Assembly (NCBI GenBank): GCA_038060895.1
Contig: JBBTCT010000004.1
Span: 1-27,825, forward strand
Direction of reading: 5' to 3'
From: Planctomycetota bacterium
Lineage (GTDB): Bacteria; Planctomycetota; MHYJ01; WSZJ01
Length of the DNA stretch: 27,825 nucleotides
The notes beneath the pieces were generated by a model. That model was not told where the DNA came from. It saw only the letters and a list, made by a program, of their open reading frames with translations, and made no database searches. How positions within the stretch are numbered: position 1 is the first letter of the stretch; every line of letters begins with the position of its first letter. The position numbers and the translations under genes are program-made. Below, piece after piece: positions 232-26,857 of the stretch.

Positions 232-501
232 GTGACGAAGTCTGTCTTTACCCCCGAGTACGAGCGTTTCCGGCTCGAGCTCGTTACCGCCCGGAAGAAA
301 GCCAGGGTGACCCAGGTCGCCCTCGCCAAGAGACTGCATCAGCCGCAGTCCTTCGTCTCCAAGTACGAGCGCGGCGAGCGCCGCCTGGATGTCGTTGAGT
401 TCTTCGGCGTCGCTCGAGCTCTGCGCATCGATCCCTTCAAGCTCCTCCGCCGGCTGTGGCACGACGCGCCGGTGGACGGATCGAAAAGGCGCACCCCATG
501 A
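232..501 (+). CDS. XRE-family HTH regulator, putative RM controller (C-like) protein
   Basis: HTH_3 pattern TQVALAKRLHQPQSFVSKYERGERRLDVVEF; GTG start with GAGG upstream; stop overlaps the REase ATG (ATGA 498-501). Confidence 0.85.
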   Translation: MTKSVFTPEYERFRLELVTARKKARVTQVALAKRLHQPQSFVSKYERGERRLDVVEFFGVARALRIDPFKLLRRLWHDAPVDGSKRRTP

Positions 502-1091
502 AAGTCATCAAGGTTGAAACGCTGATTTCCAAGGGCGTTTTCGCGGAAGGCAAGGAGTGGGGCGATTTGCGCGCGTCGATCGTCGATGCGATTCGCGTTA
601 TGGATTGGCCCGCCGGATCGGGAAAGTTCACGATTCGGCCGGAGAGAAAGGGCAACGGCGTCAAGCCGATCAAGGACCAGCTCATCGCCCAGCTCAAGAA
701 GCTTGGGTGGACACCCGAAAGGCCCCTCGACATCGCGACCGTACAGAGACCCGGCGATCTCGACGCCGTCTACGACACGACCTCGGGGCCGTGCGCGCTC
801 GAATGGGAGACGGGCAATATTTCGTCCAGCCACCGCGCGCTCAACAAAATGGCCCTGGGGTTGCTCCTCGGGCGTCTGGCAGGCGGCGTCCTCGTTGTGC
901 CCACTCGCGCTTTCTACAAGTACCTGACCGACCGGGTGGGCAATTTCGAGGAGATTCAGCCTTACCTGCCGCTCTGGAAATCCATCCCCGTCAAGCGCGG
1001 ACTCCTGGAGATCATCGTCGTGGAGCACGACGCCACAAGCGCGACTGTCGCGAAAATCCCGAAGGGGACGGATGGCCGCGCGCGCCGGTAG
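498..1091 (+). CDS. Type II restriction endonuclease, BamHI/OkrAI family (probable GGATCC)
   Basis: Motifs GNGVKPIK, PGDLDAV, LEWETGNISSSHRALNKM, YLTDRVGNFEEIQPY and IPKGTDGRA are as recalled for BamHI/OkrAI. Start taken at ATG 498 (MKVIKVETL). Confidence 0.9.
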   Translation: MKVIKVETLISKGVFAEGKEWGDLRASIVDAIRVMDWPAGSGKFTIRPERKGNGVKPIKDQLIAQLKKLGWTPERPLDIATVQRPGDLDAVYDTTSGPCALEWETGNISSSHRALNKMALGLLLGRLAGGVLVVPTRAFYKYLTDRVGNFEEIQPYLPLWKSIPVKRGLLEIIVVEHDATSATVAKIPKGTDGRARR

Positions 1092-1094
1092 GCG

Positions 1095-1997
1095 CTATCC
1101 CTCGATGAAATCGTCATTCTTGTGCGAGGCGATCTCGCCCGCCTCCATCCGATCCACAGTTTCCTGCGCGTAGTCGATCTCGATCCCGAGCCAGCGACGG
1201 CGCTTCTGCTGTGCAACGGCAAACGTCGTTCCGCTGCCGCCGAAAGGATCGAGCACCATCTCGCCGGGGACGGTCGACATTTCGACGACACGATCGAGGA
1301 TTTTCGTCGAGAGAGCGTTCGCCTTGCGGTTCTTCGACTTGAATTTCCAGTGGCGCACCGGAGGGACGTCGCTCCAGACGTCTTTGAGATTCACGCCCTT
1401 GGGGTTCATGGCGTCGCGGTGCCCGCCGTAGTCCTTCACCTCGCCCCCGCAGTGCCGGCACGTCTGGATCGGCGTGCGGATCTTGCGGAAGGTCTTGGGC
1501 TTGCCTTTCGTGTAGTAGAGCAGGCTGTAGTGGCTGGGATGCAGCCGTCCCGTGATCGGAAGGCATGCGCTGATCTCGATCGCGATCCAGTGCCGGAATT
1601 GAAGGCCAAGCTCAGTCAGGTAGGCGCCCAGGAGCACGTTCCAGCGCGGCAGGTTGTAGACGAAGACCGCGCCGCCGGGCTTCGTCACACGGACGCACTC
1701 CGCAAGCCAGCGTCGGCACCAGGTCAGGTACTCCTCGTCCGCGCGGCGGTCGTTCGTGTTCGCGCCGTACTTCTTGCCGATGTTGAAAGGCGGGTCCGCG
1801 AAGACCGTATCGACGACTTCATCGCGGATCATCGGCAAGACGTTGAGGCAGTCGCCGGCGAAGAGCGCCCCGAGGTCGGTCGAGTAGAAAGGCGACACCG
1901 CGGAGCGGGGTTCTTTGAGATAGGGAGCAAGGTCCAGGTGCTCGCTCTTGAATCCGAGACGAGGATGTGACCGTGAGACCGCTGCGTTTCCCGCCAT
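1095..1997 (-). CDS. Beta-class N4-C/N6-A DNA methyltransferase, likely cognate of the REase
   Basis: Catalytic motif FADPPFN precedes the SAM-binding motif VLDPFGGSGTT (beta order); CRHC element. Start ATG 1997 has GAGGT upstream; alternative start 2018. Confidence 0.9.
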   Translation of the reverse strand: MAGNAAVSRSHPRLGFKSEHLDLAPYLKEPRSAVSPFYSTDLGALFAGDCLNVLPMIRDEVVDTVFADPPFNIGKKYGANTNDRRADEEYLTWCRRWLAECVRVTKPGGAVFVYNLPRWNVLLGAYLTELGLQFRHWIAIEISACLPITGRLHPSHYSLLYYTKGKPKTFRKIRTPIQTCRHCGGEVKDYGGHRDAMNPKGVNLKDVWSDVPPVRHWKFKSKNRKANALSTKILDRVVEMSTVPGEMVLDPFGGSGTTFAVAQQKRRRWLGIEIDYAQETVDRMEAGEIASHKNDDFIEG

Positions 1998-2006
1998 AGG
2001 CACCTC

Positions 2007-2034
2007 AGGATATTCCAATTTCGGTTACTGTCAA
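2007..2034 (-). promoter_or_regulatory. Sigma70-like promoter candidate for the MTase
   Basis: Minus strand reads TTGACA-16 nt-TATCCT, ending 9 nt before ATG 1997. Confidence 0.45.
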
Positions 2035-2231
2035 GTTCGTGCAGCCGCGACCGGCGGGGTCGATCGGCGGCGGGCACCCGTGTCTGACACATACTCTCAT
2101 ACGACATCTCGATGCCAGTCGCAAGACCCTGGCCGCTACATTGTCAGAAGTTCCGCCGGACGATCCCGCTACAATCCGTTCGGGTTGAGAAACGCGGGTC
2201 GGCTCGAGTCCACCGGAGGGAGGCTTCTGCG

Positions 2232-2825
2232 ATGAAAGCTCGATGGGCGCTAGTTTCGTTGGCGATGATCTTCTCCGGCTGCGCCGGCGTTACTTTTCCG
2301 AAAGATGCACTTCGAGCCATCCTTGAGGAAAGCAACAAGGCCACCAGCACAACCGCCAACGTGATCGCTGCGATCGAGCGAGCCAAGGGCGATGATCCCG
2401 ACCTGGTCAGGCAGCTGGGTCCTCAGGTGCTTGTTCTTCAGCAATTACACGATAACTTAGCCGCGAAGCAAACCGCGGCTCTACAGACTCTCGAACTCGC
2501 CGCAAAGACCGGTAGCAATTCCGATCAGAAAGATTGCGCCGAGACGCTGGGTGCCGCGGCGAAGGAGCTAAAAAGTCAGGTCGGCGACTACCAAAAACGC
2601 GTGCAGGATATGCGAAATGCCGCAGGCCTGAACTTCGACATGGTGCCGATGAGTTTAGATCTGACTTCAGACATCATCGCGGGCTTGGTTGATGCTGCGC
2701 TCAAGTGGTGGAAGGCCCTCGAAGAGCAAGAGCGCAAGGAGCGGGAGAACTTTGTCACCTACCTGCAGAGCTACCACGCTAAGACGTGGGATCAGATTCG
2801 GTCTGAGGTCACGAAACGAAAATAG
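2232..2825 (+). CDS. Hypothetical helical lipoprotein
   Basis: GGAGGGAGG RBS; MKARWALVSLAMIFSGC signal with lipobox; Ala/Gln/Glu-rich helical body. Confidence 0.75.
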   Translation: MKARWALVSLAMIFSGCAGVTFPKDALRAILEESNKATSTTANVIAAIERAKGDDPDLVRQLGPQVLVLQQLHDNLAAKQTAALQTLELAAKTGSNSDQKDCAETLGAAAKELKSQVGDYQKRVQDMRNAAGLNFDMVPMSLDLTSDIIAGLVDAALKWWKALEEQERKERENFVTYLQSYHAKTWDQIRSEVTKRK

Positions 2826-2955
2826 TTCCGGAGAAATGCGCCCGTCATGTTTCGGGACGCGCGCCGCAAGAGCGACAACATGTTCGTGTGCTATCGACTG
2901 GTCTTCCTACTTGCTCGGCAACGGGTACCGCGATTCAAAAGGAGAGCGACTACAG

Positions 2956-4863
2956 ATGAAGCCGACCCAACTGAAATTCCTGCTGGGAACCCTCTTCGTG
3001 TCCATCGTCCTGTCCGGCTGTGGGAAGCAGGACGAATCCCATCCGACGCCCGCCGCCACATCTTCAAGTTCTAGCGGACCGCAGGTTCCGCAGCCCGCTC
3101 CTGCTCCCGGGATGAGGCTTCCCGAGTTCCACGGGTTGTACGCGCTTGATGGGGATCGCCTTGTTGAGCTGGGCAAGCAGGCGAAGTTCGAGGACTGTGA
3201 ACTTGACTCAAAGGCGACCTTCATCCTGTTCGATAAGACGGTGTCCACTGGCCTCAGTTCCCTCGCAGGCTCGCCTCGACTTCAGCGTTCGGTATTCGTG
3301 CGGTATCGGGTTTCTGATGTCGTAATACTCGAAGACATCTCAGGCCTTCAAGAGGCAACTGTGTCCTCTTTGAATCAGTGGAAGAAAGAAGGAAAGCCAG
3401 TTGAGTGCCGGACCAAGCCAATTCCGGGGCAGGCCGACATGATTCAGATCGTTCCACCACAGCCTCTTCAGCCAGGTGCCTACGAATTCGCCAATTTCAA
3501 GGCGGTCTTCTCCGTTGCTCTCGCCCAGAACGAAAGGTGCGACGAATTTCAGGACTCATATCGACCAGTCGCCGACCTGGACAACCTGATGGTCCGAGGC
3601 AAAGCGCTCGCGACGGAGGCGCTTGAGGGTAAGGACTGGAAAAAAGTGCTCGCGTTGACTCGCGGAGCCTTGAAGGTCAGGAGCGATGACGCGCCCTTCA
3701 TCGGCCTTCGAAACGAAGCAAGCTACGGTTTGGCGATGGAGGAGGCAAGTCGGCTGGAGGCAGCTAAGGATTTTGGGGCTGCGCTCACGGCGTATAAGCG
3801 AGCTCGTGACTGGAAAAACTCCGACAAGGCAGCGGAGGAAGCTGTCTCGCGAGTACGAGACCTGGCTTCCAAGGACCCGGTCGCATTCGTCGAGATTTCA
3901 AAGTCGGCTCCCGTAGGCTCGGATTGTCCTCAGAGCCTTGCCTTCAGTGCGGACGGCAAGCGAGTGATTTTGGTTCGCGGCTGCCCAAACAGGTTCGAGC
4001 CTGTGGTGATCCTGACGCTGGAAGAGAACCTTCGAGGCATCGTGAGCAGGACTGAGCGGAACAACGGAGTCGGAATGATGCAGAAATTCGCGCTTAGCTC
4101 CGATGGCGGCGTTCTCGCCATTGGATCGCCCGATAGTCCCTACACGGGAGACGATCGCAGGATCGTTCTATGGGATGTGGCCAAGAACTGCGCTTCGAAG
4201 ACGATTGAAAACGTAGAAGGCAAATTCTGGTCCATGGCGTTTGACCGGGGCAAGACCCGTGTGGCAACTGGAGGGAATGACAAGATTTGGGTTTGGGAGG
4301 TCTCAGAGGGCGCTTCTCAGAAACCTGCATCGGCCGTGCACGAGGAGGAATCCTGGGTGACCGCGTTAACGTTCAGCGATGACGGAAAGCTCCTTGCTTC
4401 CGTCGGCGGGTCGGACTACGGCAAACGCGACGTCAAAGTCAAGATCTGGAATCCGACGTCTCTGAAGACGATTCAGACGTGCGTAGGACACCAAGCATTA
4501 GTCAATTCGATCGCTTTCAGTCGGGACGGAAAGCTTCTCGCGTCCGGAGGCGAGGAGCATATCGGATGGAACGACAGCGTCGTTAAGGTGTGGGATGTTC
4601 CGACTGGGAAAGAAATCCGCTCGTTTTCCGAAAAGAAATCCGAGGTAACCAGTCTAGTTTTTAGCCACGACGCGAAGTACGTCCTATCCGGAACGAAGGG
4701 CGGGAGAATCTTGGTCTGGAACATCGAGACCGGAAAGTGCTCCGCGGCTCTGCAGGGCCACACTGCTGCTGTCGGAATTCTCGTGCTTAACTCGGACGGC
4801 ACCCGACTGGCGAGTGCGAGTGCGGACGAAACAGTCCGAATGTGGGGCATGTCCGAGCGCTGA
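2956..4863 (+). CDS. Lipoprotein with TPR-like helices and C-terminal WD40 beta-propeller
   Basis: AGGAG RBS; MKPTQLKFLLGTLFVSIVLSGC lipobox; WD repeats such as GHQALVNSIAFSRDGKLLASGG..VKVWD and GHTAAV..LASASADETVRMW. Confidence 0.88.
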   Translation: MKPTQLKFLLGTLFVSIVLSGCGKQDESHPTPAATSSSSSGPQVPQPAPAPGMRLPEFHGLYALDGDRLVELGKQAKFEDCELDSKATFILFDKTVSTGLSSLAGSPRLQRSVFVRYRVSDVVILEDISGLQEATVSSLNQWKKEGKPVECRTKPIPGQADMIQIVPPQPLQPGAYEFANFKAVFSVALAQNERCDEFQDSYRPVADLDNLMVRGKALATEALEGKDWKKVLALTRGALKVRSDDAPFIGLRNEASYGLAMEEASRLEAAKDFGAALTAYKRARDWKNSDKAAEEAVSRVRDLASKDPVAFVEISKSAPVGSDCPQSLAFSADGKRVILVRGCPNRFEPVVILTLEENLRGIVSRTERNNGVGMMQKFALSSDGGVLAIGSPDSPYTGDDRRIVLWDVAKNCASKTIENVEGKFWSMAFDRGKTRVATGGNDKIWVWEVSEGASQKPASAVHEEESWVTALTFSDDGKLLASVGGSDYGKRDVKVKIWNPTSLKTIQTCVGHQALVNSIAFSRDGKLLASGGEEHIGWNDSVVKVWDVPTGKEIRSFSEKKSEVTSLVFSHDAKYVLSGTKGGRILVWNIETGKCSAALQGHTAAVGILVLNSDGTRLASASADETVRMWGMSER

Positions 4864-4998
4864 ATCGCAGGAGTGCGACCGCGAATACTCGGGTTTGCCG
4901 TTCAGTGCGCGGGAAAACGGCCTGAGTGCCGGATGATCGACGACCGCGCGCGCCTTGCCCTGACCGGGGCTTTGGGTTTCTCCAGGTCAAACAATGAG

Positions 4999-5024
4999 CC
5001 GCCCCGACGAGTTCGCCGGGGCGG
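4999..5024. terminator. GC-rich hairpin between convergent genes
   Basis: CCGCCCCG...CGGGGCGG stem; no clear U tract. Confidence 0.35.
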
Positions 5025-18716: not shown

Positions 18717-20474
18717 CTATTCCTGAAGGGCGCTCCACCTCTCAAACGCCGCCGCAATCTCGCGATCAACATCGGCCACTCTCGCCTGCACCTGATCCCT
18801 CGGCTCCTTCGGTCCCGTCCAAAAGTCCGGTTTCTCCATGGCTTCATGCAGCGCCTTCTTCTCCTTCTCGAGCGCGTCGATCTTCTTCTCGAGCCGTTCG
18901 ACTTCGCGGCGATCACGGATCGTCGCCCGATGATCGGAGGCGGGTTTGGGCGCCGGCGCAGCCGGCCGCACGCGGGCGGCCTCCTCGGAACGGATCCTGT
19001 CCCACTCACTCCACCCCCCGACGACTTCGCGGACGCCGCCGTGCCCGTCGAAGACGACGAGGCCGGTGACGACCTGGTCGAGGAAGTCGCGGTCGTGGCT
19101 GACGACGAGGACGGTGCCGCTGTAGGCCTGGAGCGCGTTCTCGAGGACATCCATCGTCTCGGCGTCGAGGTCGTTCGTCGGTTCGTCGAGCACCATGAGA
19201 TTGCTGGGCCTCGCGAACAGCCGGGCGAGGAGCAGCCGCGCGCGTTCGCCTCCGGAAAGGACGCTCACGGGTTTGCGCGCGTCGTCCGAATCGAACAGGA
19301 AGTCGGCGAGGTAGGATTTCACGTGGCGCGTCCGGCCGTCGAGTTCCACGAAGGTTGTCCCGACGGTGATGCTCTCCTCGAGGGTCGCGTCGGGATCCAG
19401 GGACGCATTCAGCGGGTCGAACCAGATCGGCTCCAGGTTGCCCCCGCGCCGCACCGTTCCCGCGAGCGCCGGCAGGTCGCCGAGCAGCGTGCGGACGAGC
19501 GTCGTTTTGCCGCTTCCGTTGGGCCCGACGAAGCCGAGCCGGTCGCCGCGCGTCACGACGAGGTCGAGATTGCGGACGACCGGCGTCTTCCCGTGTCCCG
19601 CGGTAAGCCCCTTCGCCTCGAATACCAGATGCCCCGAGCGTTCCGCTTCGGCCACGCCGAGCCGGACGGAGCCCGTCTTGTCGCGGCGGTCGCGCCGCTC
19701 CTGCCGCAGGCGCTCGAGATCCGCGACCCGCGAGTAATTCCGGTTGCGCTGGGCCTTCACGTTCTTGAGCGCCCAGACCTCTTCCTTCGCGAGCTTCCTG
19801 TCGGCCCGAGCGTGACGCTGGGCTTCGTCCACGGCCCTCTCTTCCTGGCGCCGAAGGTAGTTCGCGTAGTCGCCGGGCCACGAAGTGAGCTGCCCGCGGT
19901 CGATTTCGAGGATGCGGGTCGCGAGGCGGCGAAGGAAGGCGCGGTCGTGCGTCACGAAGAGCGTCGCCGCCCGGCGTTCGAGCAGGTGGGCTTCGAGCCA
20001 TTCGATGCTCTCGACGTCGAGGTGGTTCGTGGGTTCGTCGAGGAGCAGCAGGTCGGGCGAGGCCGCAAGCGCGCGCGCGAGGAGCACGCGGCGCGACAGT
20101 CCCGCTGAGAGCGCGGCCACATCGGCGCCCGGATCGAGCCGCAGCCCGTCTAACAGGCGCGCGAGCCGCTCCTTCGTGCGCCACTCATCTTCGCCCCGCG
20201 GTACCGCCGCCGCGACCGTGTCGAACACCGTGCCCTGCATCCCGCGCGGAACTTCCTGCGGGAGACGCGCCACCGTGAGCCCCTGCCGCCGCATGACGTC
20301 GCCGGACTCGGGCTCGAGTTCTCCCGCGAGCACCGCCATCAATGTCGATTTGCCCGAGGCGTTGCGGCCAAGCATTCCCAGCCGCTCGCCCTCGTCGATC
20401 TGAAGCGACACCCCGTCGAGGATGCGGGGGCCTCCATGGGTCAGGGACACTTCGGAGAGGGAAAGGAGGGCCAT
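18717..20474 (-). CDS. uup: ABC-F ATPase, Uup-like
   Basis: Two ABC domains (GRNASGKST/LLLDEPTNHLD and GPNGSGKTT/LSGGE/LDEPTNDLD), no TM segments, C-terminal coiled coil ending ERWSAL. Confidence 0.88.
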   Translation of the reverse strand: MALLSLSEVSLTHGGPRILDGVSLQIDEGERLGMLGRNASGKSTLMAVLAGELEPESGDVMRRQGLTVARLPQEVPRGMQGTVFDTVAAAVPRGEDEWRTKERLARLLDGLRLDPGADVAALSAGLSRRVLLARALAASPDLLLLDEPTNHLDVESIEWLEAHLLERRAATLFVTHDRAFLRRLATRILEIDRGQLTSWPGDYANYLRRQEERAVDEAQRHARADRKLAKEEVWALKNVKAQRNRNYSRVADLERLRQERRDRRDKTGSVRLGVAEAERSGHLVFEAKGLTAGHGKTPVVRNLDLVVTRGDRLGFVGPNGSGKTTLVRTLLGDLPALAGTVRRGGNLEPIWFDPLNASLDPDATLEESITVGTTFVELDGRTRHVKSYLADFLFDSDDARKPVSVLSGGERARLLLARLFARPSNLMVLDEPTNDLDAETMDVLENALQAYSGTVLVVSHDRDFLDQVVTGLVVFDGHGGVREVVGGWSEWDRIRSEEAARVRPAAPAPKPASDHRATIRDRREVERLEKKIDALEKEKKALHEAMEKPDFWTGPKEPRDQVQARVADVDREIAAAFERWSALQE

Positions 20475-20493
20475 GCGGGGGGCCTACTCTACC

Positions 20494-20907
20494 TCAGGGT
20501 TTGAGCACCTTCTGCGTCTCCTCGTTGTTCCGCAGCTTCAGGGACGTCTCCTTGCCGTCGGCCTGCAGGATCGTGTGCGTCGTGTCGGAGTCGCCGAGGA
20601 GCATGAGGCCCGAGCCGTCGACGGAGGTCGTCAGCTTCACGCGCGGTTTTCCGTCGGGGGTGATCAGCCGGAAAATCACCGTCTCGGGATAGCCCGTCGT
20701 GCCATCGGGCATCTTGTACGTCGCGTTCGCCGGCTCGACTTTCATCTGGACCCGAAGCCGCCCCTGGTCATCCACGATCTCGAGCCCGCGCCCGCGGAGC
20801 ATCGGCGCGTCGTCCTCCGCGTGGGCTTTCTGGCTCGGCGCCGCCTGGTACGCGAGACACCCGAGGTTGAAGACGGTGAGCGCCCAGAGAACGCGGTTCG
20901 ATTTCAT
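20494..20907 (-). CDS. Exported hypothetical protein
   Basis: GAGGAGG RBS; N-terminal hydrophobic segment; LRGRGLEIVDDQGRLR beta-rich body. Confidence 0.75.
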   Translation of the reverse strand: MKSNRVLWALTVFNLGCLAYQAAPSQKAHAEDDAPMLRGRGLEIVDDQGRLRVQMKVEPANATYKMPDGTTGYPETVIFRLITPDGKPRVKLTTSVDGSGLMLLGDSDTTHTILQADGKETSLKLRNNEETQKVLKP

Positions 20908-21061
20908 GATTTCCTCCTCGATAGCGGGTTGTGCAGGAGACGGGCTGGCAGGGCTGCGCGTTAACGGAAATCCGCTTTCGCTGAAACCTGATCCCGTTCA
21001 CCAACTTCTCATTTCCGCTTCACTTCAGCATCATCCGCGCAAGCGCAGAATTCCTTCCACG

Positions 21062-22348
21062 ATGCGCGCAAGATTCCTGACCTATCGGTCGCTGGTCGCG
21101 TTCACCTGCCAGACCCCGGTGTTCGCCCTGTTTTATTTGTCCCGCGGCTTGGACTACGGCGACCTCCTGCTCCTGACGCTGGCCTTCGCCGCGTCCAAAA
21201 TGGTGTGCGACGTTCCCTCGGGCCTCTTCGCCGACCGATTCGGCCGCAAGCCCGCGATTCTCGTGCGCGTCGGGCTCGAAGCGCTGTCCGTCGCCCTCCT
21301 CTTCTCGGACAGTTTCCTGGCGTCGGCGATGCTGGGCGGCGCGGCCGTCGCGTTCAGCGCCGGCGCGGAACAGGCGCTCGTGTATGAATGGGAAGGCCCC
21401 GCGGCGTTCGGCCGCGTCTTCGGGCGCGTTTCCTTCTGGAGCTGCGTCTCGACCGCGATCGCTTCCGTCGCGGGAGGTGCCCTCGCTTTCGCCGGCTTCG
21501 GCTGGGTCTACACCCTCCGTCTCGCCGTCCTGGCGGCGGCCGGCGGCGTCGCGCTGACGTTCGTTGAGCCGCCGCGCCCCGTGCTGAAGCGGGCTGCCTC
21601 TCCGGTTCCGCGCCCCTCCGCCGGCCTTGCCCGGACCCTGGCCTTCGCCGGAATCCTCGGCGCCGTCCACGTGGCCGCGCTTCAGCTGCAGCAACCGTTT
21701 TTCAGGTCGGCCGGCATCCCCCTGGTTGCGTTCGGCGCGCTCTACGTCCTCCTCCAGCTCGCCACCGCGGCCGGCGCCCGCTTCTCGCACCGGCTTCCGG
21801 GTCCGCTCGGCTTCGTCGCCGCCGCGAGCGCCGTGGGATTCGCCCTCATGGGCGGCTCCGCCCCGTGGATCGGCGTCGCCGCCGTCTTCCTGCTGAAGTT
21901 CGCCCACGGCGTGTCGCTTCCCGCCTTCGGCTCCGCGCTCAATGCCCACGCGCCGCCCTCCGCCCGCGCCACGGCCATTTCCTTCCGCTCGATGTTCGAG
22001 GGCTGCGCCCTCCTCGCGGTCGTCCCCCTCATGGGTTGGACAGCCGACACCCTGTCGCTCAACGCCGCTTTCATCCTCGCCGCGCTTCTCGTCCTCCCCT
22101 CGTTCCTGCTCCTGGAGTCTGCACCTATGAGAAAAGCCCTTCGCATTCCGTTCGCCTGCCTCGTTCTCGCGCTCGCGGGGTGTTCGAACATCCCCTACTA
22201 CGAGAAGAAGGACCTGGACCGCCGGATCATGCAGTTCGACCCCAACGAGCTCGAGATCTCGTACCAGAACAAGGTCAACTTCTCCCGCGAAGTCAGCGGC
22301 GGAAGGCCCGGTCACTCCGCGGGAGGCGGCTGCGGATGCGGAAACTGA
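21062..22348 (+). CDS. MFS transporter continuing in frame into a DUF4266 domain
   Basis: MFS motif A (PSGLFADRFGRK), about 12 hydrophobic segments, ARATAISFRSM; no stop before 22348. Confidence 0.75.
   Translation: MRARFLTYRSLVAFTCQTPVFALFYLSRGLDYGDLLLLTLAFAASKMVCDVPSGLFADRFGRKPAILVRVGLEALSVALLFSDSFLASAMLGGAAVAFSAGAEQALVYEWEGPAAFGRVFGRVSFWSCVSTAIASVAGGALAFAGFGWVYTLRLAVLAAAGGVALTFVEPPRPVLKRAASPVPRPSAGLARTLAFAGILGAVHVAALQLQQPFFRSAGIPLVAFGALYVLLQLATAAGARFSHRLPGPLGFVAAASAVGFALMGGSAPWIGVAAVFLLKFAHGVSLPAFGSALNAHAPPSARATAISFRSMFEGCALLAVVPLMGWTADTLSLNAAFILAALLVLPSFLLLESAPMRKALRIPFACLVLALAGCSNIPYYEKKDLDRRIMQFDPNELEISYQNKVNFSREVSGGRPGHSAGGGCGCGN
22127..22348 (+). CDS. DUF4266-family small lipoprotein (internal in-frame start)
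   Basis: GGAG then ATG 22127; MRKALRIPFACLVLALAGC lipobox; PYYEK..L...MQFD; SRE..SGG; C-terminal GGGCGCGN. Confidence 0.8.
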   Translation: MRKALRIPFACLVLALAGCSNIPYYEKKDLDRRIMQFDPNELEISYQNKVNFSREVSGGRPGHSAGGGCGCGN

Positions 22349-23478
22349 TCCTCGCTCTCATCCTTCTCCCCGCCCTCGCACGGGCCCAGGAGAAGCCGGC
22401 TGAAGCGGAGGCCCCGGCCAAAAGAATCGAAGCCGAAACGTCGCGAAGCTATCTCCGCTTCGCATTCAATTTCTACAAGCAGAAAGACGGCGAGGGGAAT
22501 CCCAATCTCAAGGAGGACATGACGGTGCTCGAACCCCAGATCCTCCTCGGCCTCGGACTGGGCGAAAAACTGTCTCTGAACCTGAAACTGCAGGCGGACA
22601 TCATCACGGCCGCCTCCGTGGACAAGAAGTACCGCTTCCTCCCGGGGACGCAGTCCGGCGCGTCGGGGGACAAGTTCTTCGGCGCGGAGGGCGGGTTGTT
22701 CTACGCGTGGAGCGACCAGGTCAAGACGGGAATCGGTGTCTCGACCTCCACCGAATATGACTACAAGTCCCGAGGCATCAACGCCCGCTTCATTTATGAC
22801 ACACCCGACAAAAACGACACCTTCCTGATCAAGGCGTCCGCATTCTTCGACACGCTGGACATCATCAAGTTCGACGGAAGCGAAGACGGGACCGAGTCGC
22901 GGAATTCGTACAGCCTGGGGCTCGGGTGGACGCACGTCCTCGGGCGACGAACGCAGATGACGCTCAATTACGACCTGACGATCCAGCGCGGGTTCCTCGC
23001 GACCCCCTACAACTCCGTCTTCATCCGGGGCAAGGAGTACGAAGAAGTGCTTCCAAGCTCACGAATGAGACACAATCTTTTCGGGAGAGTCCGGCACTTG
23101 CTTCTTGACGACCTCGCCGTCGAACCGGGGATCGGTGTCTACGCCGACGACTGGGGCGCGCTGGCCTTCAACCTCGAGGTGCGCGCGTTCTGGGAGGCCA
23201 TTCCCGGCGTCCTGATCGTCCAGCCGTGGTACCGCTTCCATGGCCAGACCGAGGTGGACCAATTCGTGGACACGTCTGCGTCCAGCCTCCCGAAACACCG
23301 GACCCAGGACAGCGATCTCGATGCGTTCGACAGCCACACGTTCGGCCTCAAGCTCGTGACTCCGCACGTCAAGATCTTCGGCATCGACACGGAGTTCGAG
23401 CTCGGAGCGGACTACTCGATCCGAAGCGATTTCCTGGATTCCTACAGCGTCACGTTCGGCGTCATGGTGAGGTTCTGA
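22336..23478 (+). CDS. DUF3570-family outer-membrane beta-barrel-like protein
   Basis: Signal peptide; DIITAAS, SGAS, STEYDY, GFLATPY, E.LP.SR.R, YADDWG, DSDL; C-terminal Phe; position between DUF4266 and TlpA/ApbE. Confidence 0.8.
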   Translation: MRKLILALILLPALARAQEKPAEAEAPAKRIEAETSRSYLRFAFNFYKQKDGEGNPNLKEDMTVLEPQILLGLGLGEKLSLNLKLQADIITAASVDKKYRFLPGTQSGASGDKFFGAEGGLFYAWSDQVKTGIGVSTSTEYDYKSRGINARFIYDTPDKNDTFLIKASAFFDTLDIIKFDGSEDGTESRNSYSLGLGWTHVLGRRTQMTLNYDLTIQRGFLATPYNSVFIRGKEYEEVLPSSRMRHNLFGRVRHLLLDDLAVEPGIGVYADDWGALAFNLEVRAFWEAIPGVLIVQPWYRFHGQTEVDQFVDTSASSLPKHRTQDSDLDAFDSHTFGLKLVTPHVKIFGIDTEFELGADYSIRSDFLDSYSVTFGVMVRF

Positions 23479-23897
23479 TGAAAAAACTCCTGCTGCTGGC
23501 CGCCATCGCGGGGTGCGCTTCACAGCCGCCCGCCACTCCGGCCCCGGCCTTCGAACTTTCGGGGCTGGACGGCGCTTCCGTGAAAAGTTCCGACCTGTGG
23601 GCCGACAAGCCCGTGCTGCTCGTTTTCATGACTTCGTGGTGTCCGGCGTGCCGGAAGGAAGTCCCGCGGCTGAACGAGATCGCCCGGACGCATGCGGTGA
23701 TCGCGATCGCGACGGGGGACACGAAGGAGGCGATGGAACGCTGCCGCGCGCAGACCGGAATGACCTATCCTGTGCTGCTGGACGAGGGCGCGGTGAGCCG
23801 GGCATTCGGCATCCAGGCGAGCCCGACCTGCATCCTGGTGGACAAGGGCGGCGCCATCGTCTATCGCGGATCGAAACCCCCGGAGAAACTCAAATGA
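23478..23897 (+). CDS. TlpA/ResA-like thiol-disulfide redoxin lipoprotein
   Basis: IAGC lipobox; KPVLLVFMTSWCPACRKEVP; YPVLLD; ASPTCILVDKGG. Confidence 0.9.
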   Translation: MKKLLLLAAIAGCASQPPATPAPAFELSGLDGASVKSSDLWADKPVLLVFMTSWCPACRKEVPRLNEIARTHAVIAIATGDTKEAMERCRAQTGMTYPVLLDEGAVSRAFGIQASPTCILVDKGGAIVYRGSKPPEKLK

Positions 23898-24916
23898 AGA
23901 AGTGGGCGCTTCTGGTCGCGGTCCTCGCGGGCTGCGACCGGGCCCCTCACCCCGCGCCGGCTCCCGCCCCGCCCTCGAAGGGGCCGGCGAGCGCGGTGTG
24001 GAAGGGGACGCTGATGGGGAGCAGCGCCGGGATCGAGGTGTACGGCCCGGACCAGGCGGCCTGCGACGCGGCGGTCGCGGACGCCCGGGCAGAGATCGAA
24101 CGCCTCGACGTGATGATGACGGACTGGAAGCCGGACAGCCCGCTGATGGACATCAACAAGGCTGCGGGGTTGAAGCCGGTGAAAGTGCCGCCGGAGCTCC
24201 TGTTCCTGGTGCAGAAATCGCTCGAGCTGAGCGAGCTGACCGAAGGAGCGTTCGACATCTCGTTCGCGGGGGCGGGGAAGCTCTGGAACTGGCGTGCACC
24301 CGACCCGAAAATCCCGACGCCCGAAGAGGTGCGCGCTTCGCTGGTCAACGTCGGGTGGAAGGGAATCGTCGTGGACGAGAAGGAATCCACTGTCTTCCTG
24401 ACGAAACCCGGAATGCGAATCGGGCTGGGCGCCATCGCGCCGGGATATGCGGGGGACCGCGCGATGGAAAAAATCCGCGCGCACGGAATCAAGGACGCCA
24501 TGGTCGACATGAGCGGCGACCTGATGCTCATCGGGCAGAAAAGTGGTGAGCCCTGGAAGGTCTACATCAACCACCCGCGCGTGAAAGACGAGTTCGTCGC
24601 GGTCATCCCCGTCAGCAACGCGGCGATCGGGACGTCGGGCGACTACGAGCGGTTCTTCATCAAGGACGGCAAACGCTACAGCCACATCATCGACCCCCGC
24701 ACCGGCTATCCCGCCGACGGTTGCCAGAGCGTGACCGTCGTCGCGCCCGTCCTCGCGTTCGCCGACGCGCTCGCCGTCGGGCTGTTCGTGCTCGGGCCGG
24801 AAAAGGGGATTGCGCTCGCCGAGAAGATGGAGGGAGTTGAAGCGATGATCGTCGGCGCCGACGGGAAACTCCACGTCACGACCGGCCTGAAAGGCGTCGG
24901 TCCCCCGGCGAAATAG
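23894..24916 (+). CDS. apbE: FAD:protein FMN transferase
   Basis: LAGC lipobox; LMGS, TEGAFDIS, AIGTSGDYERFF, RYSHIIDPRTGYP, ADAL. Confidence 0.92.
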   Translation: MKKWALLVAVLAGCDRAPHPAPAPAPPSKGPASAVWKGTLMGSSAGIEVYGPDQAACDAAVADARAEIERLDVMMTDWKPDSPLMDINKAAGLKPVKVPPELLFLVQKSLELSELTEGAFDISFAGAGKLWNWRAPDPKIPTPEEVRASLVNVGWKGIVVDEKESTVFLTKPGMRIGLGAIAPGYAGDRAMEKIRAHGIKDAMVDMSGDLMLIGQKSGEPWKVYINHPRVKDEFVAVIPVSNAAIGTSGDYERFFIKDGKRYSHIIDPRTGYPADGCQSVTVVAPVLAFADALAVGLFVLGPEKGIALAEKMEGVEAMIVGADGKLHVTTGLKGVGPPAK

Positions 24917-24920
24917 GAGG

Positions 24921-26306
24921 TTACCTGAACGCCGCGACGATCGCGGCCACGGCTTCCTCGTCCTCGCCGTCCTGCATCGTTCGCGGATCGAGCAGCACGC
25001 GGCCCTTGTGCACGCGCGCGAAAACGGGAGGCTCGCCGAGGCGCAGGCGCGTAATCAGCACGTCGGCGCCGCGCGAGCCCGGATCCACCGCGACGACCTT
25101 CGTCTTGAGGTTCTGCCCCGGCGTCGATCCGCCGCCGATCTGCGACTCCTCGTCCCAGACCTCGGAGTCGATCTTCGCCTTCACCAGCGCGCGCGACATC
25201 ACCGTGGCGCGCTTCTCGATCTCCCCCAGCTTCAGGTTCATCATGCGAAGCGTCGGCACGGCGTCCTCGACCGTGTCCGGATTGAGATAGAGCCGGAGCG
25301 TCGCTTCGAGCGCGACAAGCTGCAGCTTGTCGGGGCGGACGGCGCGGAAGAGCGGATGCCTGCGGCAGAGAGCCACGGGTTCGAGCTTGCCGGCGATCAT
25401 CCCGGCCTGCGGTCCGCCAAGAAGCTTGTCTCCTGAGATGCAGGCGAGGTCCGCGCCTTGCGCGACGGAGGCGGCGATCATCGGTTCGGGCGCGATGCCG
25501 TACTTCGCGACGTCGAGAAGCGCGCCGCTTCCGATGTCGTCCATGACGCGCAGGTTGTGTTTCTTCGCGAGCGCGACCAGTTCTTCCAGGGACGGCTCTT
25601 CCACGAATCCGACGACCGCGAAGTTGCTCCGGTGGACGCGCATGAGAAGCGCCGTTTCGGGCGTGATCGCCTTTTCGTAATCCGCGATGCGCGTCTTGTT
25701 CGTGGTTCCGACTTCGACCATCTTGCATCCCGACATTTTCATGACGTCCGGCACGCGGAAGGCCCCGCCGATCTCGACGAGCTGGCCACGCGAGACAATG
25801 ACTTCCTTCCCGGCAGCGAGCGCCGCCAGGCAAAGCATCGTCGCCGCGGCGTTGTTGTTCACGACGGTCGCGGCGGGCGCGCCGGTCAGGCGCTCGACAA
25901 GTTTCGCGACGTGGCGCTCGCGGTGCGCGCGCTCCGACGTCTCGAGGTCCACCTCCAGCAGGTTGTACCCGCGGTTCTCCGAGACCAGCGCGTCGAGCGC
26001 CGCCTTCGGCATCACGGCGCGGCCAAGGCCCGTGTGCAGGATAATCCCTGTCGCGTTGATCACGCGGCGCAGGCCGGGACGCGAAGCGCCCGCGAGGATC
26101 GCCCCGGCGCGGGCGAGGATGGCCGGCGCGGTCAGGGCCTCCTCGGAGACGCCGTTCTCGCTCGACTTGATCTGCGCTCGCAGCCCGTCGATGACCCCGC
26201 GAACGGCTTCCGTGACCAATTCGCGGCCGTGGGTTTTCGAGAGCGCGTTTGCCTCGCTGGACTCGAGCAACGCGTTGACTTGCGGCAGCTTCCGGAGGAG
26301 GGACAT
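24921..26306 (-). CDS. selA: L-seryl-tRNA(Sec) selenium transferase
   Basis: RRVINATGIILHTGLGRA, VVNNNAAA, SRGQLVEIGGAFRVPDVM, EVGTTNKT, SGDKLLGGPQAG (PLP Lys). Start MSLLRKLPQV at 26306. Confidence 0.96.
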   Translation of the reverse strand: MSLLRKLPQVNALLESSEANALSKTHGRELVTEAVRGVIDGLRAQIKSSENGVSEEALTAPAILARAGAILAGASRPGLRRVINATGIILHTGLGRAVMPKAALDALVSENRGYNLLEVDLETSERAHRERHVAKLVERLTGAPAATVVNNNAAATMLCLAALAAGKEVIVSRGQLVEIGGAFRVPDVMKMSGCKMVEVGTTNKTRIADYEKAITPETALLMRVHRSNFAVVGFVEEPSLEELVALAKKHNLRVMDDIGSGALLDVAKYGIAPEPMIAASVAQGADLACISGDKLLGGPQAGMIAGKLEPVALCRRHPLFRAVRPDKLQLVALEATLRLYLNPDTVEDAVPTLRMMNLKLGEIEKRATVMSRALVKAKIDSEVWDEESQIGGGSTPGQNLKTKVVAVDPGSRGADVLITRLRLGEPPVFARVHKGRVLLDPRTMQDGEDEEAVAAIVAAFR

Positions 26307-26356
26307 GCGGCTGATTATGCCAAATCCGCCGCAGGGCGGGTCGTCGGGCCGCCTTC

Positions 26357-26857
26357 CTACGACACCGAAGCGTCCACTTTTGGCGGCCGCGAGTCGGTCT
26401 TCGCTGACGCGTAATCGTCCTCCTCGAACGCTTCGTCGTCGCCGAAGAGCTCGACGGGCTTGTAACCCGGCAGCTTCGACTTCTCGAGTTCCTCGCCGAA
26501 CGCTTTGAGAATCGCACCCGCCAGCTCTTCGCGCCCCGCCGCATGAATCGGGTGCGCGACGTCCGCGTACAGCTTCTGCCGCCCCTCCTCCGTCACGATC
26601 TTCCGCTTCGCCGGCAGCCGCCCGCCGCAGTCGTTGCAGAAGCTCGCGCGCAGGTGGTTCTTGCCGCCGCACTTGGGGCAGCGATCGGTGAGTTTCCTTG
26701 ACGGCATCGCGACGAACGGGCCGCGTGAGCCGTCGATGATCTTGATGTCCCGGATGACGAGCGCGTTCTCGAGCGTGATCGAGCAGAACCCGCGCAACTT
26801 GTCGTTCGGACGGCTGACGAGCTTGACCCGCACCTCGGTGATCTGCATGGTGTCCAT
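26357..26857 (-). CDS. spoVG: SpoVG family nucleic-acid-binding protein with Zn-ribbon insertion
   Basis: MQITEVRVKL, VIRDIKIIDG..GPFVAMPSRK, CPKC..CNDC insertion, YADVAHPI. Confidence 0.9.
   Translation of the reverse strand: MDTMQITEVRVKLVSRPNDKLRGFCSITLENALVIRDIKIIDGSRGPFVAMPSRKLTDRCPKCGGKNHLRASFCNDCGGRLPAKRKIVTEEGRQKLYADVAHPIHAAGREELAGAILKAFGEELEKSKLPGYKPVELFGDDEAFEEDDYASAKTDSRPPKVDASVS

Follow-up and report, generated by a model that had tools for sequence, protein, structure and literature searches.

The exporter and DUF4266 lipoprotein genes constitute a single reading frame

We analyzed a 27,825-nucleotide (nt) stretch of DNA from a groundwater bacterium of the phylum Planctomycetota (contig JBBTCT010000004.1 of assembly GCA_038060895.1), hereafter referred to as the window, in which the gene for an exporter of the major facilitator superfamily (MFS) and the downstream gene for a small lipoprotein of the DUF4266 family constitute a single reading frame. 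The open frame extends from 20699 to 22348 on the forward strand, and its translation from the ATG at 21062 yields a protein of 428 residues that is stop-free throughout. Pfam detects two domains in this protein, MFS_1 (82.5 bits; cut-off 33.4) and, at residues 380-426, DUF4266 (43.2 bits; cut-off 27), while the last 73 residues alone match DUF4266 (PF14086) with 47.7 bits versus the cut-off of 27. The MFS transporter part (21062..22126, +) comprises 355 residues with 12 transmembrane (TM) helices and is efflux pump-like according to Pfam, AlphaFold2, and Foldseek, and its start aligns with those of 21 homologues. The DUF4266 gene (22127..22348, +; Pfam PF14086) encodes 73 residues plus a stop, but it is not the standalone gene of ~70 residues that is typical of this family, as there is no stop codon between the MFS and DUF4266 parts.

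The sequence-only reading that first drew attention to this locus had stated that DUF4266 keeps its own ribosome binding site-like GGAG, ATG, and lipoprotein signal, and all three are indeed seen in the sequence. The Shine-Dalgarno-like GGAG (22114..22117, +) lies within Leu-Glu codons of the MFS part, occupies invariant columns in a five-sequence DNA alignment, and is followed after a 9 nt spacer by the internal ATG (22127-22129). The junction reads T-ATG-A, with a TGA (22128-22130) located one frame off. A product of the internal start would carry a basic n-region and a hydrophobic stretch followed by an L-A-G-C lipobox (Cys374 of the fused chain, codon 22181-22183), which together form a lipoprotein signal peptide (22127..22183, +), and would end in GGGCGCGN (22322-22345). 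Lipidation and cleavage at Cys374 are putative, based upon the occurrence of L-A-G-C after a basic and a hydrophobic segment. A promoter and terminator scan of 20400-25200 returned no promoter-like sites, together with six terminator-like sites inside genes versus 3.4 expected.

In the AlphaFold2 model of the exporter, residues 1-350 exhibit predicted local distance difference test (pLDDT) values >90 and form 12 long helices, and a loop spans residues 165-186. Hydropathy also yields 12 helices, and the PF07690 match together with this fold of two six-helix halves places the protein within the MFS. Its top Foldseek matches were NorA, LacY, MFSD10, and YajR, with >340 MFS matches in the PDB at E≤0.001. 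For the subfamily, sequence searching of the PDB returned no match and all NCBIfam matches were far below their cut-offs; according to NCBIfam, Foldseek, and ESM Atlas, the likeness is generic MFS/efflux only. Basic residues are found on the N-terminus, on the even-numbered loops, and on the linker past helix 12, indicating that the MFS C-terminus should be cytoplasmic and, therefore, that the DUF4266 signal peptide is rightly oriented to serve as a 13th helix. Hydropathy, the model, and the basic inner loops thus bear out the topology that had been proposed. The AlphaFold2 model of the fused chain (mean pLDDT 86.8) contains a further helix at residues 356-371 (pLDDT ~63), which is the candidate 13th helix, while confident packing between the MFS and DUF4266 parts was not seen in this model. 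As a separate observation, all 22 MFS sequences of the clade share Cys16 (21107-21109), a helix 1 residue that is part of a Cys-Gln-x-Pro sequence. We also considered the MFS as a DsbD-like thiol relay and rejected this idea. Cys16 is the sole invariant Cys among the 22 sequences, and with only one such residue in the MFS, a two-cysteine relay is unsupported.

A single extra base distinguishes the window from its two-gene relatives

In a set of 41 related genomes, G003, G004, and G005, which belong to the same genus (identity 64-66%), and G019, which belongs to the same class (57%), each contain separate, adjacent matches to the MFS part and the DUF4266 part, located in different frames. Four further genomes of the same genus (85-89% complete) yielded no match. 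Direct inspection of G003, G004, and G019 revealed that the MFS frame passes the DUF4266 ATG by ~11 codons and reaches a TGA inside the signal peptide coding region, which corresponds to an out-of-frame overlap of ~35 nt between the two genes. When the DNA of the window was aligned with that of all four relatives, the junction contained a single gap column, created by an extra T at 22126 (+) that joins the MFS and DUF4266 frames. This base is missing from 4/4 relatives and sits in the window between the two C's of a Pro codon and the ATG; if it were removed, the MFS would terminate at the TGA at 22128-22130. The sequence-only reading had cautioned that a single indel might have merged two genes overlapping by ATGA. 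The first part of this caveat stands, since T22126 alone separates the window from its two-gene relatives, whereas the overlap in those relatives is ~35 nt rather than ATGA.

The larger sequence collections yielded the same result. From a collection of 5.8 billion proteins, 21 close MFS homologues (56-67% identity, 356-371 residues) all contained PF07690 only, and none was fused. In all 21, the C-terminus consists of Pro-Cys and a further 8-13 residues, as results when the DUF4266 ATG is read through out of frame. In a scan of 401 genomes of the phylum, a single match extending over residues 1-428 was present only in the genome of the window, adjacent MFS/DUF4266 pairs occurred only in G003 and G019, and ~30 further genomes had a DUF4266 match that did not adjoin an MFS match to this query. 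The DUF4266 part alone (73 residues), when searched against 1.84 billion representatives, produced 109 matches at E≤0.001, all of 45-132 residues and none of them fused. Its closest relatives are standalone proteins of 72-73 residues, including a 73-residue protein with 73% identity, and the other three members of the 90% cluster of the window protein are likewise standalone (61-72 residues). A conserved MFS-DUF4266 fusion family was therefore found in none of the four related genomes, none of the 21 homologues, and no other genome among the 401. Because the relatives, the MFS homologues, and the DUF4266 representatives are all unfused, we judge the merge to be derived, of single-base origin, confined to the lineage of the window, and young.

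The merged frame is present in three independent studies

The source genome is a metagenome-assembled draft of 47 contigs and 86.5% completeness. We examined the junction on assembled contigs from four sequencing runs, and it should be noted that minor variants are not excludable at this level. In run X1, which is possibly the source sample, an 8686-nt Logan contig spans 21000-23000 with 0 differences and 0 gaps. Run X3 comes from a different study and contains a 182-nt contig spanning 22009-22190, while run X7 is an RNA library from a third study with a 191-nt contig spanning 22033-22186; both are free of differences. The junction was not covered in run X9, which is uninformative. The 428-residue protein is also recorded in the protein collection (3 contigs) and in ESM Atlas, possibly from the same samples. 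The site of T22126 is not a homopolymer. Thus, the in-frame merge is genuine DNA and an assembly error is ruled out by the identical junction in three studies, and the in-frame fusion that had been read from the sequence is confirmed by the open frame, the presence of both Pfam domains in one protein, and the contigs of these studies. The X7 metatranscriptome contributes three contigs that match the operon (21665-21843, 22033-22186, and 22174-22348), all with 0 differences, which is compatible with expression in the aquifer and not proof of it.

The exporter leads an ApbE/DUF3570 flavinylation operon

Immediately downstream of DUF4266 is a gene for a DUF3570 protein (22336..23478, +; PF12094, 104 bits), a predicted outer membrane β-barrel by AlphaFold2 and Foldseek with one SGAS motif (residue 107). 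It is followed by genes for a TlpA-like lipoprotein of 139 residues with a thioredoxin fold and a W-C-P-A-C motif (23478..23897, +; Pfam Redoxin and AhpC-TSA) and for ApbE, a 340-residue lipoprotein and flavin adenine dinucleotide (FAD):protein flavin mononucleotide transferase (23894..24916, +; Pfam ApbE, 276.9 bits). The DUF4266, DUF3570, redoxin, and ApbE genes follow directly upon one another, each overlapping the next (by 13, 1, and 4 nt, respectively), and the operon has opposite-strand genes on both sides. One of these encodes the selenocysteine synthase SelA (24924-26672, -) and is arranged tail-to-tail with ApbE. According to Meheust et al. 2021 (eLife, PMC8238504), ApbE flavinylates DUF3570 at [S/T]GA[S/T] motifs, DUF4266 is a secreted protein of small size with a CXC motif, and such clusters occur 221 times beside DsbD and 316 times without a nearby DsbD; a Chlorobium DUF3570 protein with two flavinylation motifs is described as well. 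All of the components of such a cluster (ApbE, DUF3570, a thioredoxin-like protein, and DUF4266) are encoded together in the window, and its DUF3570 protein carries a single SGAS in which Ser107 is conserved in ≥90% of 12 homologues and Gly108 and Ala109 are invariant. DsbD_TM is absent from the window operon and from beside the operons of the four relatives, the only match being located on another contig, C14. The operon thus fits the DsbD-unlinked clusters of PMC8238504.

The 45 open reading frames (ORFs) around the loci of the four relatives exhibit the order MFS-DUF4266-DUF3570-(redoxin)-ApbE, with no DsbD. The main text of PMC8238504 mentions MFS 0 times. We also examined eight other loci of the phylum, for which 56 of 92 crudely picked ORFs were scanned, namely those nearest to DUF4266, so that misses should not be taken as absences. 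DUF3570 was found in 8/8 of these loci, ApbE in 6/8, and redoxin in 3/8, while an MFS upstream of DUF4266 was found in none among the ORFs scanned, with the same proviso. Several additional features of related loci were observed. In G215, a different MFS_1 gene (L045:10425-11684, +; 420 residues, E 7.7e-44) directly follows ApbE in a DUF4266-DUF3570-redoxin-ApbE locus, which is a second independent exporter association. In the DUF3570 protein of G005 (L041:5004-6443, -), the flavinylation loop is extended by a long insertion that is rich in Gly and Ser and in which S-G-A-S occurs about six times, and this insertion may be a multi-flavinylated loop, judging from its sequence. Histidine kinase/response regulator genes flank the DUF4266/DUF3570 module at L039:9530-11540 (-), L042:4978-7259 (-), and L049:7952-9460 (-).

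DUF4266 is predicted to reside inside the DUF3570 barrel

AlphaFold2 models DUF3570 as an all-β protein of ~16 long strands (mean pLDDT 78.3), with the SGAS loop (93-110) disordered in the model. Its best Foldseek matches in the PDB are all outer membrane barrels (OccK/OprD, FadL, PelB, chitoporin, and OmpG; probability 1.00, TM-scores 0.4-0.5), and the C-terminal residue is Phe or Trp in 12/12 homologues. We then predicted how residues 19-380 of DUF3570 would pair with mature DUF4266 (residues 19-73), and this complex received a median score of 0.80 over three runs, while the best of three controls reached 0.02. Of 157 solved complexes, 116 attain the mark for this score, compared with 2 of 215 mismatched pairs. 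At least 62% of the contacts are shared between the runs, and the partner has a pLDDT of at least 62. The contact residues of DUF3570 occupy alternate positions along the strands, indicating that they face the lumen and that DUF4266 is a predicted plug. The models thus predict a location for DUF4266 within the lumen of the DUF3570 outer membrane barrel, which is out of reach for a chain that the MFS retains in the inner membrane. The working form of DUF4266 should therefore be a free lipoprotein that is either translated from the internal ATG or released from the fused chain by cleavage at the lipobox.

Internal lipoprotein signals precede DUF4266 in other proteins

DUF4266 of the window has the features of a small lipoprotein with a lipobox Cys and a C-terminal Gly-Gly-Gly-Cys-Gly-Cys, a motif that ends two residues before the stop. 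Cys19 (the lipobox residue), Met35, Gly68, Cys69, and Cys71 are invariant in 45/45 aligned members, that of the window included, and the invariance of the lipobox Cys argues for cleavage and lipidation. A search of longer proteins with the single 73-residue sequence returned no fused relative, but this was a weak search, as a later profile search showed that it had missed real fusions. The latter employed a profile of 45 DUF4266 sequences and identified 21 clusters of ≥192 residues with PF14086, comprising 2 with MatE, 15 with a thioredoxin-like domain, 1 with fn3, and 3 without another family. None of the 21 contains an MFS domain. DUF4266 was located at the extreme C-terminus in all eight of the long proteins that were read.

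The two proteins with a domain of the MATE exporter family, P0136 (520 residues) and P0137 (519 residues), originate from assembled public runs and share 52% identity. In both, a single frame continues from a 12-TM exporter into a basic stretch, then into a hydrophobic segment with Cys at its end, and finally into DUF4266; their linkers differ by in-frame indels and an internal Met is absent. The window fits the same architecture of exporter, internal lipoprotein signal, and DUF4266, although the likeness is architectural, as MFS and MATE are not homologous families. P0138 and P0140 are Cys-rich secreted proteins that exhibit the same internal signal pattern behind a sorting tail-like segment, again with no Met before the signal-like segment. 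P0139 and P0141, in which a Met is kept before the signal, and P0156, which has a doubtful upstream part, may be accidental merges, while P0144 is a direct domain fusion with DUF4266 and has no lipobox. In this comparison of sequences, a lipoprotein-type signal inside the chain ahead of DUF4266 is found repeatedly, and certain lineages conserve this arrangement, also when a 12-helix exporter precedes it. The conserved MATE::DUF4266 fusions indicate that the architecture is viable and that an exporter is linked to the ApbE/DUF3570/DUF4266 system. Whether any other genome carries the fusion had been raised by the sequence-only reading; no MFS fusion was found elsewhere, whereas conserved MATE::DUF4266 fusions do exist. 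A scan of genome contigs for MATE::DUF4266 yielded two Kiritimatiellia loci with a standalone DUF4266-DUF3570-ApbE arrangement and with MATE genes elsewhere in those genomes. Among 301 genomes of the phylum of these loci, MATE matches were ≤38% identical and none extended into the DUF4266 part, and a metagenome scan returned one MATE that lacked DUF4266, together with a single locus at which DUF4266 stands alone.

Other features of the window

Near the start of the window (232-2018) is a BamHI-like restriction-modification unit consisting of a small helix-turn-helix protein (232-498), an endonuclease of the BamHI family (456-1088), and an opposite-strand N4/N6 DNA methylase (1098-2018). The adjoining region (2001-5000) has a G+C content of 57% versus ~65% and encodes a 724-residue WD40-repeat protein (2689-4863), together with a 237-residue ORF without a family match. 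This region may be acquired DNA adjoining the restriction-modification unit.

Discussion

The results show directly that the two frames are merged, that one base is responsible, that the relatives lack the merge, that three studies contain it, and which genes the operon comprises, while the barrel fold and the plug-in-barrel complex are predicted from models. We consider the best explanation of these results, with a probability of roughly 0.6, to be a young frame merge in which both functions are kept, with free DUF4266 made from its own start, any fused chain resolved at the lipobox, and the lipoprotein delivered to the barrel. In this scenario, the insertion of one base (T22126) would have merged the genes of an efflux-type MFS and a DUF4266 protein, which overlap out of frame in the relatives. 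Free DUF4266 would still be produced by internal initiation from its own GGAG and ATG, while the signal peptide of any read-through MFS::DUF4266 chain would insert as a 13th helix with its N-terminus inside and its C-terminus outside. Lgt/LspA processing would presumably follow, with a lipid attached at Cys374 and signal peptidase II cleaving the chain, yielding an exporter with one extra helix plus an identical mature lipoprotein. The latter would leave the inner membrane by lipoprotein sorting and occupy the lumen of the flavinylated DUF3570 barrel, where its C-terminal Cys-Gly-Cys may work with the TlpA-like thioredoxin and flavin. Independent expression and processing elements have been kept, given the conserved GGAG and the invariance of both the lipobox Cys and the Cys-Gly-Cys at the C-terminus. 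The suggestion that two products arise from one frame is accordingly a plausible one.

Several points weigh against this explanation. The pLDDT is only 42-66 for residues 356-428, meaning that the topology of the tail is not confidently predicted, and the complex prediction employed self-made alignments (12 and 45 rows), for which the calibration is only rough. We found no published case of Lgt/LspA acting upon a lipobox located after a polytopic protein, including within the available part of PMC8048626, and the explanation presumes that Planctomycetota sort lipoproteins to an outer membrane in the manner of E. coli. The DNA and gene neighborhood of the MATE::DUF4266 proteins were not recovered in the genome and metagenome scans described above. 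The X7 contig over the junction, despite its origin in an RNA library, is no proof of transcription and is silent on translation. Lastly, the merge is unchanged in samples dated 2018-2025, as a selected functional fusion would also be.

Alternatively, one could suspect a sequencing or assembly artefact, given a draft metagenome-assembled genome in which a single base decides, with the locus really consisting of two genes and the MFS ending at the TGA at 22128-22130. However, the independent assembly of the possible source run and the contigs of two other studies share this base with 0 differences and 0 gaps, and its site is not a homopolymer, which leaves an artefact exceedingly improbable. 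The merge might also be a useless but tolerated read-through, whose fused chain is left unprocessed and is either degraded or a burden to the exporter, with all of the working DUF4266 originating from the 22127 start. Such an outcome would be in keeping with the conserved and intact GGAG and ATG, with the unique, single-base nature of the event, and with the literature, in which we found no precedent for internal lipobox processing. Conversely, an internal Met is lacking ahead of the signal-like segment in the MATE:: and Cys-rich::DUF4266 proteins, so their DUF4266 must either be released from the longer chain or work within it, and processing of such chains is therefore likely. On balance, we regard a purely useless read-through as unlikely.

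A permanently tethered and functional fusion was the favored idea of the sequence-only reading, in which the signal peptide serves as a lasting 13th helix and the Cys-Gly-Cys is a captive thiol carrier at the periplasmic face of the MFS. The topology would allow it, with 12 helices and a cytoplasmic linker of basic character preceding the hydrophobic stretch; exporter-DUF4266 chains are evidently maintained elsewhere, as MATE::DUF4266 is conserved; and the same junction recurs in three studies that span several years. Yet the fusion is absent from 4/4 related genomes and 21/21 MFS homologues, the lipobox Cys is kept both here and in the MATE fusions, which favors cleavage, DUF4266 is predicted inside an outer membrane barrel, and the fused model exhibits no confident packing between its two parts. 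A transporter with a tethered thiol carrier is consequently a poor fit to the results, and we consider it quite improbable.

The FAD source of periplasmic ApbE is acknowledged as an open question in PMC5655446, which also names the MATE-family proteins Bfe and YeeO as known flavin exporters, and the genes of the ECF flavin exporter EetB/FmnA are often found beside apbE, according to PMC9973259. As ApbE needs FAD outside of the cytoplasm and flavin exporters are known, some of which are coupled to apbE, FAD for periplasmic ApbE is our leading guess for the exported substrate, albeit a tentative one. A broader and rather speculative idea is that exporter::lipoprotein precursors are a real recurrent class, with an MFS here and a MATE elsewhere, from which signal peptidase II releases the plug and in which the exporter supplies FAD, another cofactor, or reductant to ApbE/DUF3570; the window would then capture the birth of such a precursor. 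We think this doubtful at present.

The ApbE/DUF3570/DUF4266 genes encode a widespread and functionally unsolved envelope redox system. The system itself is known, whereas three points go beyond what is in print, as far as we could find: an exporter leads the operon, MATE::DUF4266 proteins provide a parallel, and DUF4266 is a predicted plug of the DUF3570 barrel. The MFS-led planctomycete clade and the MATE::DUF4266 lineage together point to a dedicated exporter within this system, and the predicted site in the barrel lumen, obtained with clean controls, assigns a specific location to the small secreted CXC protein. Furthermore, a single inserted base has turned a gene overlap into an in-frame precursor of a polytopic protein and a lipoprotein, which provides a natural test of Lgt/LspA on a lipobox behind 12 TM helices. 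Were the merge a tolerated accident instead, it would still serve as an annotation warning, as the ORF at 21062-22348 should then be read as two gene products.

Comparison with known systems

The MFS of the window may be compared with the flavin exporters Bfe, YeeO, and EetB/FmnA: its gene is coupled to an apbE operon, and in another lineage a MATE protein is fused to DUF4266. The MFS differs from these flavin exporters in having no sequence match to a solved structure and only a generic MFS/efflux likeness. The window resembles the clusters described by Meheust et al. 2021 in that all four marker genes are adjacent and overlapping, DUF3570 contains SGAS, and DUF4266 has a C-terminal CXC. Unlike the DsbD systems of that study, there is no DsbD in the operon, which is led by an MFS gene both here and in the four relatives, and the clusters reported there also differ from the window in that its exporter and DUF4266 share one frame. 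With standalone DUF4266 lipoproteins, the window shares Cys19, Met35, and the Gly-Cys-Gly-Cys end, and it departs from them in that no stop follows the upstream gene. LptD/LptE is an example of a lipoprotein plug in an outer membrane barrel, and it serves here as a working analogy only: the likeness consists of a small lipoprotein predicted within a barrel encoded by a neighboring gene, with no sequence or functional relation. The closest architectural counterparts are P0136 and P0137, which similarly join a 12-TM efflux-type transporter, a basic linker, and a hydrophobic segment leading to a Cys with a C-terminal DUF4266. Their transporter is a MatE rather than an MFS protein and their fusion is conserved with no internal Met, whereas the fusion of the window is confined to one lineage and keeps its internal ATG.

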